From the UHGV virus genome UHGV-0186543: a stretch of DNA of 46,602 nucleotides. The stretch is one strand, 5' to 3'. This document shows positions 33 to 12,387 of the stretch, piece by piece. Position 1 is the stretch's first letter, and the number at the start of each line of letters is the position of its first letter. The notes under the pieces are model-generated. The model had not been told where the DNA came from, did no database searches, and saw only the letters and a program-made list of their open reading frames with translations. Made by a program: the position numbers and the translations under genes. The stretch comes from a virus.

Positions 33-821
33 TCAAAATGCTGAATCAGCAACGGATACAGCCGACTTTTCCCCCATTAGCATCAATTTATCCAGCGTCA
101 TACTTCGCAGGTTGTCGCTGTGGATCACCAGATACCCTGCCCGCTCAGCGATCTCTTTGAAAGCGTCAAAGGTCATCAGATGTTCGCCTTTGGCAACATG
201 GCGCATCCTGGTCACTTTTCCATTTTTGATAGTGGTGATAAAAGAAAAATCCGGAATGGTTGGCTGATTTTCATCGAGTAGCAGGCAGTGGATGTATTCA
301 ATCGCCTCTAACATTTGCGTCTGTGACAGTTGTTCTATGTGAGAGACGGCGAAACGTTGGTGAATCATGGTGTAGGCATCGGGATACATCATGCCTTTCT
401 TACCGACCAGCATATTAACGGCATCACGTAAGGGAGTACGGTCATCGGTAGTTGTACTCCGCCTCTCTGGGCGCTGGCTAAAATAACAATCTTCAAGCTT
501 TTCGAAAACTTCCCAAGCCTGTTCTGTTTCCAGCATTTTGGCATGGCGAGCTGCGCCGCGTTCTGTCCAGAGAATGAGGGATCGGGTATGTTTAGCAACT
601 GACTGACTATCTGTCAGTCTGTTTTTGAAGTCGCGTAATTCATTACCTTCCAGCTTAAAAAAATGCTTTCCTACGACAAATCTGGCGATGTTGCGCTTGA
701 AGTTTTGCTGGATACCATTTACTTCCGTGCCATACAAACTGGCAAGCAATTCAGTAGTGATGACGGGAAGTTGGTTATGATGTAGCGGAGAAAGGGATTC
801 CGCAGATATTTGGATTGTCAT
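33..821 (-). CDS. ant: antirepressor (ORF6N/Bro-N-like N-terminal domain plus KilA-C/Ant-like C-terminal domain)
   Basis: ORF 33..869. The N-terminal LPVITTELLASLYGTEVNGIQQNFKRNIARFVVGKHFFKLEGNELRDFK is typical of ORF6N antirepressors. Start placed at ATG 821 (GAGG 8 nt upstream); ATG 851 or TTG 869 are also possible. Confidence 0.75.
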   Translation of the reverse strand: MTIQISAESLSPLHHNQLPVITTELLASLYGTEVNGIQQNFKRNIARFVVGKHFFKLEGNELRDFKNRLTDSQSVAKHTRSLILWTERGAARHAKMLETEQAWEVFEKLEDCYFSQRPERRSTTTDDRTPLRDAVNMLVGKKGMMYPDAYTMIHQRFAVSHIEQLSQTQMLEAIEYIHCLLLDENQPTIPDFSFITTIKNGKVTRMRHVAKGEHLMTFDAFKEIAERAGYLVIHSDNLRSMTLDKLMLMGEKSAVSVADSAF

Positions 822-982
822 CGCAGTGGCCTCACTTAGTGTTTTTTTCATCACCACCAGCGACGCCAATCATCTGGTGGTGAACTGTGCAGGGTTGGCG
901 TAACCGGCTAAGTGAACCCGGCGCTTCCGCAGAAGCCCCCACACAGCCCACCATAATGCGAATGTGGCCGTGCCTAACACAT

Positions 983-1005
983 AAAAAAACCGCTAACGCG
1001 GCTAT
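983..1005 (-). terminator. intrinsic terminator upstream of ant
   Basis: On the minus strand, hairpin AGCCGC-gtta-GCGGTT is followed by TTTTTAT. It lies between the 73-aa ORF and ant. Confidence 0.55.
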
Positions 1006-1093
1006 GCGTCACTTAGATATCCGGGACGCCAATCCCGGCAACCGATTTTGCGGCTGCGCGGAAACTATAGCCCCGGGCTTTTTCTAAGTCAAT

Positions 1094-5973: not shown

Positions 5974-6171
5974 CTAAGCTTTTTCATGTTTTGGAACATC
6001 GTAAAAAGTCGGGTCATATTTCAGTGCTCCGTTAGTGATATGGTCGAGTCGAGCAGCTCGCTTTTCAGGAACTGTTGCCCCCCAACGAGTAACCGCCACT
6101 TGAGATATACCCAGCACCTTGGCTGTGGCTGTCTTTGAACCAAAAAAACTAATAACCGTCTCTGTTTTCAT
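5974..6171 (-). CDS. Cro/YdaS-like HTH regulator
   Basis: 65 aa with HTH KTATAKVLGISQVAVTRW. Divergent from the repressor gene. SD GGAGGG upstream of the ATG. Confidence 0.8.
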   Translation of the reverse strand: MKTETVISFFGSKTATAKVLGISQVAVTRWGATVPEKRAARLDHITNGALKYDPTFYDVPKHEKA

Positions 6172-6239: not shown

Positions 6240-6653
6240 ATGAGGATGAAGAATTTGATGCTTAGCGACCGTTTATCTCAAAGACGCAAACAGCTTGGTC
6301 TAACCCAACAACAGCTTGCTGATATGGTTGGAAGATCGAGTGTGAGCGTTTTTAAATGGGAAAGCGGACAAAATGAACCAAAGGGTCAGAACTTGCTGGC
6401 TTTGGCCAATGCACTTAAGTGTTCTGCCACATGGCTGCTTTTTGGTGACGAAGACCAGGCACCAACTCCGGTAGACGAATTACCAACAGAGCTGGATTCA
6501 CGTCAAAAAAGATTGTTAGAGTTATTTGATTCATTACCCGAGTCAGAAAAAGAAAAGCAACTAATTGAATTAGAAGATAAAGTTGAAAACTTTAATCGTT
6601 TATTTGAAGAGTTACTGGTTACCAGAAAGAAACTAACCCCCACCAAAAAATAA
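6240..6653 (+). CDS. CI-type repressor, XRE-family HTH, no S24 peptidase domain
   Basis: 137 aa. HTH LTQQQLADMVGRSSVSVFKWESG. Acidic, coiled-coil-like C-terminus. Too short for, and lacking, a LexA/CI autocleavage domain. Start could be 6240 (nearly leaderless) or ATG 6258. Confidence 0.85.
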   Translation: MRMKNLMLSDRLSQRRKQLGLTQQQLADMVGRSSVSVFKWESGQNEPKGQNLLALANALKCSATWLLFGDEDQAPTPVDELPTELDSRQKRLLELFDSLPESEKEKQLIELEDKVENFNRLFEELLVTRKKLTPTKK

Positions 6654-6656
6654 AAT

Positions 6657-6692
6657 AAAGGCAATGTTTTCAATGCATTGCCTTTATTTTTA
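6657..6692 (+). terminator. intrinsic terminator after the repressor gene
   Basis: AAAGGCAATG ... CATTGCCTTT stem (6657-6666 / 6676-6685) followed by ATTTTTA. Confidence 0.75.
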
Positions 6693-6701
6693 CCCCAAAT
6701 A

Positions 6702-6752
6702 CTAACCTTTGTTATAAAACGCCTTGCACATAAAATTACCTTTAGTTATATT
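6702..6752 (+). promoter_or_regulatory. candidate PL promoter with operator-like sites
   Basis: TTGCAC (6724-6729), 17 nt, TATATT (6747-6752). CTAACctttGTTA at 6702-6714 matches the PR operators. A weaker TTACctttaGTTA at 6737-6749 has an N5 spacer. Confidence 0.55.
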
Positions 6753-6800
6753 CATTCCATCAACAACGCTTACCCAGCGGCAGTTGTTCAGAAACAAGTT

Positions 6801-6823
6801 CTGACAGCCGGAAAGACGGCACC
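6801..6823 (+). repeat. 23-bp direct repeat, copy 1
   Basis: ctgacagccggaaagacggcacc, identical to 7254-7276. Confidence 0.9.
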
Positions 6824-7108
6824 AAATTTTGCGCGTCGGCGCCAACACGATGACAGAGGGAAAGACTTCACCGGCATATGGCACATGTGTCGAAGCGGTC
6901 TGGATGGAAGCGGAGCCTTAACGCGTTGTCTCCATAGCAGGTAGCCGGAATGTGCAAGCCACAGCCAGGTATGAGCGATTGATTCACCATCAAGGCGATA
7001 CGGTGTGACCACCAGGGAAGAGTCCTGGCTACAACACGAGAGCGCACTTCATCGACTCAACTTTGAGCTTTGTCGTTAAATTTTGAAATGGCGGAGTGCG
7101 CTCCCGGT

Positions 7109-7173
7109 TGTGGTGAACAGGTGTTTAACGGGAACTCCCTGCCCGTTACCCGGTTCGATTCCGGGCGCTACAC
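7109..7173 (+). ncRNA. tRNA-like element (T-arm plus acceptor-like stem), not a canonical tRNA
   Basis: CCCGG-TTCGATT-CCGGG T-arm at 7149-7165. 7166-7172 CGCTACA can pair with 7109-7115 TGTGGTG (two G-U pairs). The interior is only 33 nt, with no D-arm and a 9-nt central loop. Confidence 0.3.
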
Positions 7174-7253
7174 CGTAATTATTGGGACCCTCTGGTGAAA
7201 GCCAGAGCCTCTCGCAGAGAGGCGCAACGAGGAAAGACCGGGCATGACCAGCC

Positions 7254-7276
7254 CTGACAGCCGGAAAGACGGCACC
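7254..7276 (+). repeat. 23-bp direct repeat, copy 2
   Basis: ctgacagccggaaagacggcacc, identical to 6801-6823 and 453 bp downstream of it. Confidence 0.9.
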
Positions 7277-7430
7277 CTTTAGATGGCAAAAGACCCGCAC
7301 AAGGCGGGCCAGTTACCCCGAACGGCGACCAAACCATTCGGATATGGTGCAAGGGACCAACCTTACACCGAGGAAAGACCAACGACAGAGCCGCTGATCG
7401 GTTCTGAGTATACCCCACCAAGGAGTCGCT

Positions 7431-7751
7431 ATGGAAGCGCGCACCATCCCAGTAACACTCTTTATTAATTATGCAACTTCAACTTTCAGCCACGAAAAGC
7501 TGCTTGTTGCGACTGTTGATATGTCAAAAAATTTTCCAGACAGGTACATCCTTCTGGAAAGCCGCGAAATTGAAATTACCGTCAACCAGCCCCAGCCAAT
7601 CGACATCATCGGTTTACAGGTCGAGCAACTGCGTGAACAAAAACAGAAAACAGTCGCCGAAGCCCAACAGCGTATTGCTGCTATCGATGACAAAATCCAG
7701 CAGTTACTTTGCATCGAATACACGCCAGATACTGATGAAATCCCCTACTAA
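7431..7751 (+). CDS. hypothetical early-left protein (106 aa)
   Basis: ATG with AAGGAG 7 nt upstream. C-terminal coiled-coil-like segment. First gene after the long leader. Confidence 0.6.
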   Translation: MEARTIPVTLFINYATSTFSHEKLLVATVDMSKNFPDRYILLESREIEITVNQPQPIDIIGLQVEQLREQKQKTVAEAQQRIAAIDDKIQQLLCIEYTPDTDEIPY

Positions 7752-11017: not shown

Positions 11018-11216
11018 ATCAAAGCAATGTGAGGCTCTTCGCCGGGCTGGAATTTTCTTCATGGAAAGGGCTGACGGGCACCCAAAAACAACCTGGGGCC
11101 ATTTCATGAACCCAATAAAATTTCGCAATTTACAGGAGGTGACGACGCGAAAAGATGATGAACCTGATTTTGGAGCAATATTTAATGGCCGGAAAGAGAA
11201 AGAACCCAGCAGATAA
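10953..11216 (+). CDS. excisionase-like protein (DUF4224-type)
   Basis: 87 aa. ITREEMVELTGSPLKSKQCEALRRAGIFFMERADGHP matches the DUF4224 pattern usually found just upstream of phage integrases. Leader TGAGGAAAGACC abuts the ATG. Confidence 0.65.
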   Translation: MRSDHDIITREEMVELTGSPLKSKQCEALRRAGIFFMERADGHPKTTWGHFMNPIKFRNLQEVTTRKDDEPDFGAIFNGRKEKEPSR

Positions 11217-12201
11217 CTGGATGCCGCCTCGTGTTTACCAGGGCAAAGCGGCCTACGAATTCAGGAATAAAGATAACAAAGCGATACGCCTGTGCGCATT
11301 GGATGCGCCACGATCAGCCGTATGGCTGGCATATGAAAAAGCGGTCGGTGACGAAAAAGAAAGAAATACTTTTCAGGCGCTCGCGGAACAATTCATGACC
11401 TCCCCTGATTTTATGGATTTGGCAGTCGAAACCAGGAAAGACTACACAAAATATTCCGGAAAAGTTCTGCCTGTCTTCGGGAAGATCGACCCGGATAAAA
11501 TCAAACCTGAACATATTCGGCGCTATATGGATCAACGCGGTTTATCAAGCCGAACTCAGGCAAACAGGGAAAAAAGCTTTATGTCCAGGGTATTCCGTTG
11601 GGGTTATGAACGAGGTTATGTCCAGAGGAATCCTTGTCAGGGAGTTAAGCAGTTTAAAGAGACAGCACGCGAACGTTATATTACGGATGAAGAATATCAG
11701 GCCGTTTATGAAGTATCTCCTGATGTTGTTCGCGTGGCAATGGAGATTGCCTACTTATGCGTGGCCAGACAGAGTGATGTACTTTCATTGCAGAAAGACC
11801 AGCTGTTCGATTCCGGGATCTACATTCGTCAGGGAAAAACCGGCGTTAAGCAAATCAAAGCCTGGTCGCCTCGTCTGCAGAAAGCGATAGCTCTGGCTCG
11901 TTCTCTGCCATTAAAACCGGGAATCAGTAGCCTGTTTGTGATTCATCAAACTACCGGAGGCAAGTACACCCGTGATGGTTTTAACTCTCGTTGGCGTGAT
12001 GTCAAAGCGGCAGCACAGGAAAAATATCCTCATCTGCAAATAGACTTCACATTTCATGATCTGAAAGCAAAAGGTATCTCTGATCTGGAAGGCAGCCTGG
12101 AAGAGAAGCAAGCAATTTCCGGGCATAAGAACCCACGACAGACAGCAGCATATGACCGAAAAGTTAAAGTAGTGCCCGTAGTTGGTGGCCAGAGAAAATG
12201 A
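11185..12201 (+). CDS. int: tyrosine site-specific integrase
   Basis: Start at ATG 11185 (MAGKRKNPADNWMPPRVYQGK). Catalytic-domain motifs ARQSDVLSL, HDLKAKG and GHKNPRQTAAYDR. Adjacent to the tRNA-derived att core. Confidence 0.9.
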   Translation: MAGKRKNPADNWMPPRVYQGKAAYEFRNKDNKAIRLCALDAPRSAVWLAYEKAVGDEKERNTFQALAEQFMTSPDFMDLAVETRKDYTKYSGKVLPVFGKIDPDKIKPEHIRRYMDQRGLSSRTQANREKSFMSRVFRWGYERGYVQRNPCQGVKQFKETARERYITDEEYQAVYEVSPDVVRVAMEIAYLCVARQSDVLSLQKDQLFDSGIYIRQGKTGVKQIKAWSPRLQKAIALARSLPLKPGISSLFVIHQTTGGKYTRDGFNSRWRDVKAAAQEKYPHLQIDFTFHDLKAKGISDLEGSLEEKQAISGHKNPRQTAAYDRKVKVVPVVGGQRK

Positions 12202-12290: not shown

Positions 12291-12331
12291 CGACACTGCT
12301 TATTGCTTTGATTTTATTCTTATCTTTCCCA

Positions 12332-12387
12332 TGGTACCCGGAGCGGGACTTGAACCCGCACAGCGCGAACGCCGAGGGATTTTAAAT
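12332..12387 (-). other. att core: 3'-terminal 56 nt of tRNA-Leu(UAA) (leuZ-type), partial tRNA only
   Basis: The reverse complement reads TTTAAAATCCCTCGGCGTTCGCGCTGTGCGGGTTCAAGTCCCGCTCCGGGTACCA. This is the anticodon loop through CCA of enterobacterial tRNA-Leu(UAA) as I recall it. The 5' half of the tRNA is absent. Confidence 0.8.

Follow-up and report, generated by a model that had tools for sequence, protein, structure and literature searches.

A real but incomplete tRNA look-alike occupies positions 7109–7172 of the DNA analysed here, a viral stretch of 46,602 nucleotides that is a lambdoid prophage and is referred to in its entirety as the window. At the level of sequence, comparison of homologues shows a discrete, mobile, tRNA-shaped unit in the position of a tRNA. 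Its most likely role is probably to punctuate the transcript for RNase P and further enzymes of tRNA processing. The leader that surrounds it holds a modular noncoding RNA cassette, apparently undescribed, which consists of a core, a long hairpin and a cargo slot. Support for an element that is more than a chance occurrence is comparative. The local fold on its own is ordinary (z = -1.37; 23 of 200 shuffles fold as well). The motif GGTTCRANTCC occurs twice in the window against 0.23 expected, a count reached by three of 100 shuffles, and the second copy is a genuine tRNA-Leu fragment (12346–12356).

The tRNA-like unit and its leader

The leader of the early-left operon spans 6755–7430 and is free of open reading frames. 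Transcription from the promoter-like site (table 1) is predicted to start near 6758, which would place the tRNA-like element about 350 nt into the leader, on the transcribed strand. Taken as a whole, the leader has an unusually strong predicted fold (z = -4.0). It contains no terminator in the window; relatives carry a strong intrinsic terminator directly 3' of the element, ahead of the operon genes, and in these no N-like gene is visible. The first open reading frame 3' of the leader encodes 106 residues (phrog_2479), and an arginine-rich N-like motif was not found in it. Small reading frames that follow GGAAAGAC motifs were discarded as coding candidates, as alignments show no conservation of the kind expected for coding sequence. 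CUGACAG together with hairpins that have a GAAAGA loop resembles boxB. Elsewhere in the window, int occupies 11155–12201 and has beside it the phage's own att core, a leuZ 3' fragment (about 12330–12385, minus strand). A search of phage records for near-identical sequence gave no match.

Table 1. Positions of the features of the cassette and tRNA-like unit in the window.
Feature	Positions	Strand	Basis or remark
Promoter-like site of early-left operon, TGCACA-16-TATATT	6725–6752	+	3' of repressor gene (6240–6653) and its terminator (6652–6690); position kept in relatives
Structured core RNA, upstream cassette module	6868–7028	+	about 160 nt, four helices
Invariant 19-mer GGTAGCCGGAATGTGCAAG in core	6940–6958	+	exact in >120 IMG/VR contigs
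Long imperfect hairpin, arms 7029–7054 and 7090–7115	7029–7115	+	inverted repeat; covariation
Acceptor-like 5' strand UGUGGUG	7109–7115	+	pairs with 7166–7172
Linker of 10 nt in place of D-arm, AACAGGUGUU	7116–7125	+	alignment
Central stem of 7 bp (UAACGGG/CCCGUUA) with 9-nt loop	7126–7148	+	100% of cells paired
T-arm, 5-bp stem CCCGG/CCGGG, loop UUCGAUU	7149–7165	+	canonical features
Acceptor-like 3' strand CGCUACA	7166–7172	+	pairs with 7109–7115
Degenerate 3' end CCGU	7173–7176	+	tRNA-Arg and closed cargos read A-CCA here

The original prediction described a tRNA-like module that is not a real tRNA, and this description fits: a T-arm, an adjacent stem-loop and an acceptor-like helix are present, without a D-arm and without CCA. 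The T-arm that it named is found as described, its 7-nt loop TTCGATT agreeing with TTCRANY and closed by a G-C pair (G53-C61). The acceptor-like pairing of TGTGGTG with CGCTACA also stands over seven pairs, two of them G-U; the 34-nt spacing given for the upstream strand is in fact 33 nt. The +1/72 pair is U-A. The 5' strand is in register with that of the closed cargos found in related cassettes (UGUGGUG...CACCACA-A-CCA), and where sister cassettes carry tRNA-Arg, its 5' end is no more than 1 nt away from position 7109. Two transitions separate CGCUACA from the cargo consensus CACCACA, and pairing survives each of them as G-U. The 3' tail is C-CGU rather than N-CCA, with the CCG that had been noted at 7173–7175 and no encoded CCA. 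Within the unit, the CAGGUG stretch of the linker is invariant across all variants. The central stem abuts the T-arm without a variable loop, and its own loop, which has 9 nt in the window, has 7–8 nt in Pectobacterium variants.

As had been expected, tRNA callers do not recognize the element. ARAGORN finds no tRNA gene in the window at default settings and none with -ps. Its mitochondrial and forced -ps80 models are mutually inconsistent and were disregarded, as was an 8-bp acceptor in the Pectobacterium phage ZF40 (GGATAGCG, from -ps80), the upstream sequence of which is absent from the related copies L222 and L482. The element has neither a cloverleaf with a D-arm and a 5-bp/7-nt anticodon arm, nor the canonical combination of 7-bp acceptor, discriminator and encoded CCA. 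Rfam returns sub-threshold matches only: tRNA-Sec at 17.2 bits (gathering score 47) and mascRNA-menRNA (RF01684) at 16.8 bits (gathering score 42.5; E = 0.23 in a 101-nt search). The latter model, although far below threshold, aligns end to end on exactly 7109–7172. The T-arm aligns to the T-arms of the tRNA-Sec, mascRNA and tmRNA models, and matches to tmRNA and YrlA do not extend beyond these 17 nt. Searches at gathering and permissive thresholds, run on the whole window, on the leader and the element separately and on the P1 homologue, gave no family for the element or the core.

A core, a hairpin and a slot

The core is strongly supported by covariation: 98.7% of cells in its alignment are paired, eight pairs show compensatory change, and none of 500 shuffles reaches the observed score. 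It has no matching family in Rfam 15. It is also present in P1, P7, D6 and SJ46, between trnI and ban; in P1 it is unannotated and lies beside a tRNA, without hairpin and slot. A long-range GCACAU/AUGUGC pairing proposed by RNAalifold for the core was rejected; it involves invariant columns, and the local P1 hairpin is preferred because it covaries. Neither the element nor the core turned up in literature searches by sequence and by keyword, and a preprint on the Pas sRNA concerns other loci.

The long hairpin belongs to the minimum free energy (MFE) structure both of the whole leader and of the segment 7020–7182. Across 40 distinct pairs of hairpin arms, cognate arms fold at -26.8 kcal/mol versus -19.4 +/- 4.5 kcal/mol for non-cognate arms. 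The cargo slot begins at the 3' end of the hairpin, GTTGTGG, which shares bases with the acceptor-like 5' strand, so that the tRNA-like unit starts on the same strand directly at the hairpin end. Sister cassettes are built in the same way, the hairpin 3' end overlapping the 5' end of a tRNA or other cargo. In 26 of 125 unique core-containing regions the slot holds a tRNA-Arg(UCU), which starts GTTG|TGGCAT; measured from the core motif, the T-arm of this tRNA is at +213 and that of the window element at +209. Other cargos are enclosed by a UGUGGUG/CACCACA helix of 7 bp, after which A-CCA follows as at a tRNA 3' end, and many end in CCACAAC, the start sequence of the hairpin 5' arm. In SPN1S-type cassettes the loop of the hairpin itself contains T-arm-like hairpins.

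Homologues delimit the unit. Among 5426 complete E. coli genomes, 448 carry the block 7109–7168 with 100% identity (blastn). Homology with most of these relatives stops at 7168, and the majority E. coli variant, which reads …CGCCCAT…, therefore keeps only the four T-arm-proximal acceptor pairs. All seven acceptor pairs are possible in the window type only, and five or six in the Pectobacterium variants, which share CGCUA with the window. In ZF40 the block is about 86% identical. ZF40 and the other Pectobacterium phage copies (L222, L191 and L482) have in common with the window only the sequence bounded by the two acceptor strands, both included, and the flanks are unrelated. In ZF40 and L222 the 3' flank, an AATCACG hairpin and then the terminator GCTGTGTAGTC, is the flank that follows tRNA-Arg in SPN1S. 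In L482, ARAGORN calls a tRNA(CAU) whose CCA lies 3 nt ahead of the start of the unit, and a hairpin and a terminator come downstream of the unit.

Substitutions that preserve pairing are seen in all three helices in the alignment of the unit, where 89.5% of cells are paired overall. Acceptor columns 7-64 read G-U, G-C or A-U, and columns 9-62 read U-G or C-G. A T-stem C-G pair becomes U-G in ZF40 and L222. In the central stem, A-U becomes G-U in one variant (L004) and G-C becomes G-U in L482. A 1-nt deletion interrupts the T-stem of another copy (L226), and T-loop A58 is G in L191. With five to seven distinct sequences from three lineages, covariation of the unit is not significant. The family is narrow: a covariance model (R1) run against about 1 Mb of related loci recovered window-family copies only. 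Pattern scans of viral, genome and metagenome collections added, among the matches listed, only L191, L222 and L482, one of these variants coming from the scans of genome and metagenome contigs.

Proposed processing and competing explanations

The reading advanced here, tentatively and at somewhat less than an even chance, is that 7109–7172 is a D-arm-less, CCA-less tRNA-like unit that fills the cassette slot and is recognized by the host tRNA-maturation machinery as a processing site. In E. coli, RNase P recognizes its substrates by the stack of acceptor and T-arm helices, and it cuts polycistronic transcripts between tandem tRNAs. The proposal has the following parts. (i) The bottom 5–7 pairs of the long hairpin would open, as is needed for the acceptor helix to form; for this reason cleavage may be inefficient or conditional. 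(ii) The host tRNA-maturation machinery would recognize the unit. (iii) RNase P would cut 5' of U7109, the predicted site being between U7108 and U7109. (iv) Enzymes of 3' trimming would act on the unit, and TrmA/TruB possibly on the T-arm. (v) The polycistronic leader RNA would thereby be split, separating a core-hairpin RNA (about 6758–7108) from the downstream exonuclease-xis-int mRNA. The same part falls to the real tRNA of sister cassettes. Placement fits such a role, to judge from the cassettes compared: the unit takes the slot of tRNA-Arg(UCU) and, in L482, stands 3 nt after a tRNA. The discrete block between unrelated flanks, the pair-preserving substitutions, the tRNA-like framing of other cargos and the end-to-end alignment of the mascRNA-menRNA model, although far below threshold, also speak for it. 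Points against it are an acceptor predicted not to form in context, the missing CCA, the U-A pair at +1/72, the non-significant covariation of the unit, the narrow family and the four acceptor pairs of the majority E. coli type.

Folding predictions bear directly on the acceptor. In the segment 7020–7182, the T-arm (probability about 0.96) and the central stem (0.82–1.0) are predicted to form. The acceptor-like stem has an ensemble probability near zero, because 7107–7113 pairs with 7029–7035 at the base of the long hairpin. A contiguous stack of seven acceptor and five T-arm pairs is possible; enforcing the acceptor against the hairpin base raises the energy from the MFE of -61.9 to -53.8 kcal/mol, a cost of 8.1 kcal/mol. 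The sequence GCUACA is present twice, at 7027–7032 and 7167–7172, and in the folding model the true competitor for the acceptor 5' strand is the hairpin base, CUACA 7029–7033 versus CUACA 7168–7172. A strand-exchange switch might be built on this duplication, UGUGG 7109–7113 pairing with the upstream copy (hairpin closed) or the downstream copy (acceptor formed) and so gating processing or downstream expression. The overlap of hairpin and cargo in sister cassettes, and the many cargos that end in CCACAAC, agree with this idea. It is nevertheless very unlikely: the two states lie 8 kcal/mol apart in the model, which predicts no equilibrium, the majority E. coli variant lacks the 3' CUACA, and we know of no ligand or factor for such a switch. 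A different switch had been put forward in the original prediction, in which a helix of GCG..CCCGG (7098–7107) with CCGGGCGC (7161–7168) competes with the T-arm. The helix itself exists, as the local MFE structure of 7080–7180 in isolation. Its use as a switch is hardly credible. Enforced in context it reaches -43.2 kcal/mol, a cost of 18.7 kcal/mol, with its pairs at probability 0; the covarying long hairpin, which is transcribed first, uses the same 5' strand in its 3' arm; and the helix is absent from the Pectobacterium homologues.

A further explanation is a decaying pseudo-tRNA, the non-functional remnant of a working tRNA or of a tRNA-scaffolded cargo, kept only by recent common descent and hitch-hiking in the leader. 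This is rather unlikely. In its favour, D-arm and CCA are absent, the central arm has an odd 7-bp/9-nt form, the acceptor 3' strand is lost in most E. coli copies at the recombination break at 7168, and L226 and L191 carry the T-arm changes described above. The narrowness of the family points the same way, and conservation among the E. coli copies carries no information because these are 100% identical. Decay is at odds with the occurrence of a discrete block in two host genera between unrelated flanks, with stem substitutions that mostly keep pairing, with a T-arm and central stem intact in every lineage, and with the very compact L482 locus, where the unit is kept in tandem with a real tRNA. 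Another view takes the T-arm and central hairpin as a building block of a larger cis-acting leader RNA, such as a put- or nut-like antitermination or folding element, in which the T-loop would make a tertiary contact and no processing would occur. T-loop tertiary contacts are found in RNase P RNA, T-boxes and riboswitches. The strong folding of the leader and its covarying modules, the terminator that directly follows the element in relatives lacking a visible N-like gene, the T-arm-like hairpins in SPN1S-type hairpin loops and the boxB-like CUGACAG and GAAAGA-loop hairpins would all accord with it. This view is distinctly unlikely, as the unit is found without core or long hairpin in ZF40 and L482 and is interchangeable with a real tRNA or other cargos; the core therefore cannot depend on it. 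The window leader, moreover, has no terminator, and there is no similarity to the HK022 or HK639 put RNAs. The comparison with HK022 (blastn against its early region) gave a 16-nt chance match inside coding sequence, and the hairpin and core motifs are absent from that phage. The annotated putL of HK639 shares only the heptamer GGAAGAG.

It had also been suggested that the element is the relic of an att site from another element. On this reading the sequence would descend from the 3' portion of a host tRNA or tmRNA gene that a different integrating element left behind. The 20-mer CCCGGTTCGATTCCGGGCGC is indeed identical, in unrelated viral contigs, to the T-arms of ARAGORN-called tRNA-Cys and tRNA-Ile genes and to the 3' ends of apparent tmRNA genes; it also occurs in other sequences. 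The search for a source gene went against the suggestion. With 7109–7176 as query, blastn against the 5426 E. coli genomes returned unannotated prophage copies only, no annotated E. coli tRNA or tmRNA gene matches, and a pattern scan of GTDB genomes listed no tRNA gene with this arm among its matches. The tRNA/tmRNA match is confined to the T-arm, the element lies 4 kb from int, which has the leuZ fragment beside it, and it is always on the transcribed strand inside an RNA cassette. An att origin is thus extremely improbable.

Comparison with known systems and implications

A close parallel to the tRNA-like unit is the tRNA-Arg(UCU) of Uetakevirus-type phages (SPN1S and IMG/VR contigs such as L012). 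It fills the same slot after GTTGTGG with a nearly equal T-arm offset, and the modules downstream of it are those found with the Pectobacterium copies of the unit. The tRNA has a full cloverleaf and an encoded CCA and is called by ARAGORN, whereas the element lacks D-arm and CCA and its central arm is non-canonical; the two show no sequence similarity outside the T-loop. In architecture the element is like mascRNA/MEN-beta (RF01684): on the 3' side of a longer noncoding RNA stand a 7-bp acceptor, a short replacement of the D-arm, a stem-loop and a T-arm. RNase P cleavage at mascRNA makes the 3' end of MALAT1, and the mechanism proposed here is the same. The likeness is one of analogy, not homology, given the score below the gathering threshold, and mascRNA is a eukaryotic nuclear RNA.

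RNase P separates the members of tandem tRNA operons in E. coli, and tRNAs punctuate mitochondrial transcripts. The L482 locus resembles such an operon, with the unit 3 nt 3' of tRNA(CAU) in one short terminator-ended transcription unit, where a cut 5' of the unit would release the upstream RNA. It differs in having no functional tRNA as downstream partner; in the window, furthermore, a structured RNA of 350 nt rather than a tRNA is the upstream partner. The C4 RNAs of P1/P7, CI of P4 and M3 of phi80/HK639 are small RNAs that phages obtain from longer early or immunity transcripts through RNase P; P1 c4 and P4 CI were the parallel drawn in the original prediction. These RNAs are hairpin-type substrates that are not known to have a T-arm, and none matches the element in sequence or by model: RF01695 and clan CL00128 (C4, CI) have no match in 6500–7700. 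A kinship with P1 C4 is not borne out, as the C4 RNA homologue of the window lies elsewhere (873–958, minus strand; Rfam matches to C4 and a1b1 fall within 873–1070, minus strand) and is unrelated to the element. An M3-like RNA is annotated in the HK639 record. A T-arm and acceptor-like helix without a normal D-arm, within a larger noncoding RNA, is known from tmRNA, YrlA and the stable RNAs of the phage T4 tRNA cluster, some of which are phage-encoded and co-transcribed with tRNAs. The element differs from tmRNA and YrlA in lacking a CCA end and any SmpB or Ro context.

Structures that recruit tRNA enzymes by resemblance are already known (mascRNA, tmRNA, Y RNAs, phage C4 and M3), and another would be unsurprising. 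Many temperate enterobacterial phages, however, carry the apparently undescribed modular RNA cassette to which the element has led; its core RNA combines strong covariation with absence from Rfam 15 and from the annotation of P1. A broader proposal, which is unlikely as a whole, is that the slot serves as a natural 'tRNA scaffold' expression platform in temperate enterobacterial phages (lambdoid and epsilon15-like). Diverse cargo RNAs of 75–275 nt, framed by a 7-bp acceptor-like helix and N-CCA, would be excised and stabilized by host tRNA enzymes beside the conserved core RNA; the window element would be a minimal cargo and the core a new functional RNA class. The processing hypothesis is easily testable in E. 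coli and in P1-like or lambdoid systems. If the slot is indeed processed by RNase P, these phages would use tRNA mimicry to produce and stabilize assorted small RNAs from their early transcripts.

Setting and boundaries of the tRNA-like unit

The whole stretch belongs to a lambdoid phage or prophage; its YdaT-O-DnaB operon runs leftward, as does the P22-Cro-like gene. The ~680 nt downstream of a promoter-like site hold no credible ORF. The operon beyond this leader encodes a phrog_2479 protein, a 737-aa exonuclease, Gp157, an excisionase and an integrase. Gene order and the promoter-like site therefore place the tRNA-like unit, on the transcribed strand, ~350 nt into an early-left operon leader. 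A P1-type immI module (873-1070(-) plus 33-869(-)) is also present; its C4, isrK and a1b1 matches lie upstream of the ORF for an ORF6N-domain (Ant/KilAC-like) protein, 33-869(-).

Coordinates of features (window positions unless stated)
Feature	Position	Strand	Remark
C4 antisense RNA	873-958	(-)	Rfam match
isrK	983-1057	(-)	Rfam match
a1b1 target	1018-1070	(-)	Rfam match
P22-Cro-like gene	5974-6171	minus	
HTH repressor gene	6240-6653	plus	terminator hairpin at its end
Terminator hairpin	6652-6690		closes HTH repressor gene
Promoter-like site	6725-6752		downstream of repressor terminator
CUGACAG + GAAAGA-loop motif	6801-6820, 6851-6869, 7254-7273	(+)	
Further leader motif sites	7228-7242, 7369-7380		
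Core RNA	6868-7028		
Long imperfect hairpin	arms 7029-7054/7090-7115	(+)	directly after core
tRNA-like unit	7109-7172	(+)	
tRNA-Leu 3' 50 nt (leuZ type: …AAATCCCTCGGCGTTCGCGCTGTGCGGGTTCAAGTCCCGCTCCGGGTACCA)	~12330-12385	(-)	just past integrase gene 11155-12201
Core RNA homologue	1412-1600 of phage P1 NC_005856 (L355)		unannotated

One motif recurs in the leader: CUGACAG, then a GAAAGA loop on a stem of 4-5 bp. Read by eye, the stems vary between phages with pairing preserved (GCCG/CGGC, GAGG/CUUC, GCGG/CUGC, GCCCG/CGGGC), reminiscent of boxB/nut sites. Unpaired copies of GAGGAAAGACC also occur, and GAGGAAAGACCGGGC at 7228 is apparently one base off the RNase P RNA P4 consensus.

Related leaders occur in 509 of 5426 complete E. 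coli genomes, and 448 of these carry 7109-7168 at 100% identity; annotation is missing from all 448, and tRNA genes overlap none of them. In a six-relative alignment, homology to the window ends right after CCGGGCGC (7168). From there the relatives read CCATCATCAATTTGC… and run on into a terminator module; the window has lost this module, and its leader has zero predicted terminators. Among matches listed, the window-type 3' version (…CGCTACACCGTAATT) is found elsewhere only in IMG/VR contigs L153 and L180. In relatives L001-L006 and L007 (aligned from window 7169 on) the intrinsic terminator is enclosed by GCTGTGT…ACACAGC. It lies directly 3' of the tRNA-like unit or hairpin and upstream of the operon genes, which implies antitermination in these relatives or else a separate short ncRNA transcript. 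They contain no N-like gene.

Structure of the unit and the adjoining hairpin

The predicted T-arm, CCCGG-TTCGATT-CCGGG, is present at 7149-7165. TGTGGTG (7109-7115) and CGCTACA (7166-7172) are complementary over seven pairs, two of them G-U, and the 3' end does read CCG for CCA. As expected, ARAGORN called zero tRNAs. Rfam gave sub-threshold matches only, to tRNA-Sec (17.2 bits) and to mascRNA-menRNA (16.8 bits), the latter covering precisely 7109-7172, and local fold energy is ordinary (z = -1.37). The case for significance therefore depends on cross-sequence comparison.

GGTTCRANTCC occurs twice in the window (0.23 expected). Its second copy belongs to a genuine tRNA-Leu (leuZ) 3' fragment adjoining the integrase, where ARAGORN finds no complete tRNA; this fragment is the phage attachment-site core. 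The suggestion that the unit is an att-site relic from another element was rejected, since its E. coli copies overlap no tRNA gene and the window has its own leuZ fragment. An unrelated family of ~12 viral contigs (including L132, L140-L142, L147, L170-L172 and L178) shares the T-arm 20-mer inside another tRNA-like sequence (GGCGGCGATAGGATTCTC…CCCGGTTCGATTCCGGGCGCCGTC), with no ARAGORN call.

Cognate arms of the long hairpin fold at -26.8 kcal/mol, versus -19.4 +/- 4.5 for non-cognate combinations (40 distinct arm pairs). Given this covariation, 7098-7115, the 5' half of the stretch singled out in the original prediction, is the 3' arm of the hairpin. The family pattern is ACAAC…AGCGC… / …GCGCU…GUUGUGG. 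The apical loop is variable, with motif GTCGTTAAAT in several phages and two T-arm-like hairpins in SPN1S. The hairpin is possibly an RNase III or processing stem. In epsilon15 an 'RNaseIII mRNA processing' feature is annotated nearby, on the strand opposite to the unit.

The MFE fold of 7020-7182 (-61.9 kcal/mol) closes the hairpin fully (base-pair probabilities ~1) and retains the T-arm (P ~0.96) and central stem (P 0.82-1.0). It includes a short closing helix, GGUGU 7120-7124 / ACACC 7170-7174, exclusive to the window type. Forcing the acceptor stem to form carries a penalty of 8.1 kcal/mol. The alternative helix 7098-7107/7161-7168 exists and is the MFE of the isolated local fold. Its proposed role as a switch was rejected: in 7020-7182 its pair probabilities are 0, enforcing it costs +18.7 kcal/mol, and its 5' strand is the covarying arm. 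The competition that matters in these predicted folds is for UGUGG 7109-7113, which can pair with CUACA 7029-7033 or with CUACA 7168-7172. A similar 3-4 nt overlap, with a weaker hairpin base, occurs in tRNA-Arg cassettes.

The core RNA and its cargo slot

The core, on the plus strand of the window, is ~70-75% identical to unannotated DNA of SPN1S, Tyrion, mEp390, BUCT708/709, Klebsiella phages, P1, P7, D6 and SJ46; in the last four it sits between trnI (tRNA-Ile2, CAU) and ban. An invariant 19-mer, GGTAGCCGGAATGTGCAAG, matches exactly in >120 viral contigs. Eighteen diverse copies support an RNA of ~160 nt with four covarying helices. Pairing holds in 98.7% of alignment cells, with compensatory change at 8 pairs; 0 of 500 shuffles scored as high as the real alignment, and slid controls were 30-50% paired. 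tRNA-Arg(UCU) or tRNA(CAU) adjoins the core in 38 of 125 unique regions.

GTTGTGG forms the 3' end of the hairpin, and what follows differs among the 125 regions: an ARAGORN-called tRNA-Arg(UCU) in 26, the window-family tRNA-like unit in 9, a closed cargo in 51 (75-275 nt, with GTTGTGG…CCACAAC at its bounds), and an open slot in 15; GTTGTGG is absent from 24. The T-arm is offset from the core motif by +213 in tRNA-Arg and +209 in the window family. Where an AATCACG hairpin module is present, tRNA-Arg and non-tRNA cargos both read acceptor 3' strand-A-CCA immediately before it (ATGCCGC-A-CCA-GAATCACG and CACCACA-A-CCA-AATCACG). The window's CGCUACA-C-CGU occupies this position, and CGCUACA differs from CACCACA by two transitions, each of which leaves a G-U pair to UGUGGUG. 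Hence the acceptor-like stem of the original prediction is homologous to the slot's recurrent closing helix, not a chance complement.

Diverse non-tRNA cargos of 75-275 nt (L010, L023, L024, L045, L063, L076, L105 and others) close by UGUGGUG…CACCACA, followed by A-CCA-(A/G)ATCACG. In some (such as L010 and L076) hairpins abut the closing strands: GCGCAGGCUGAUGCGC on the 5' side and GCCGG…CCGGC on the 3' side. These cargos look like tRNA-scaffolded small RNAs.

Identity and proposed role of the unit

Pectobacterium phage ZF40 and related contigs L191, L222 and L482 carry the unit at ~86% identity behind unrelated upstream sequence. A closed cargo precedes it in L222, and in L482 it starts 3 nt past the CCA end of a genuine tRNA(CAU). 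In all four an AATCACG hairpin and a GCTGTGTAGTC…terminator module lie 3' of the unit; this flank also follows tRNA-Arg in SPN1S. Substitutions mostly keep pairing: G-U, G-C or A-U at acceptor columns 7-64, U-G or C-G at 9-62, C-G or U-G in the T-stem, and A-U / G-U and G-C / G-U in the central stem. The outer three acceptor pairs are intact in the window type only. Covariation falls short of statistical significance with 5-7 distinct sequences, and a covariance model run over ~1 Mb of related loci found window-family copies only (window and L078). The family is real, yet narrow.

Sequence comparison thus shows a discrete, mobile, tRNA-shaped unit, without D-arm or CCA, in a position that sister cassettes fill with genuine tRNAs or with tRNA-framed cargos. 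We propose that the tRNA-maturation machinery handles it. A putative RNase P cut at U7108/U7109 would punctuate the leader RNA, much as tRNA or tRNA-like units punctuate transcripts via RNase P in tandem tRNA operons and in MALAT1/mascRNA. The main rival is a decaying pseudo-tRNA, supported by loss of the acceptor 3' strand from most E. coli copies and by the prediction that the hairpin base prevails over the acceptor. The unit may instead be a structural part of a larger regulatory RNA, a possibility made less likely by its occurrence elsewhere without core or hairpin.

tRNA-like structures are already known as a kind, and the element is a further variant. The core RNA, for which no matching Rfam 15 family and no description in literature searches was found, and the tRNA-framed cargo slot both appear to be undescribed there. 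The surrounding cassette, with its covarying core RNA (in P1 too) and its slot, is more novel than the element and merits separate study.
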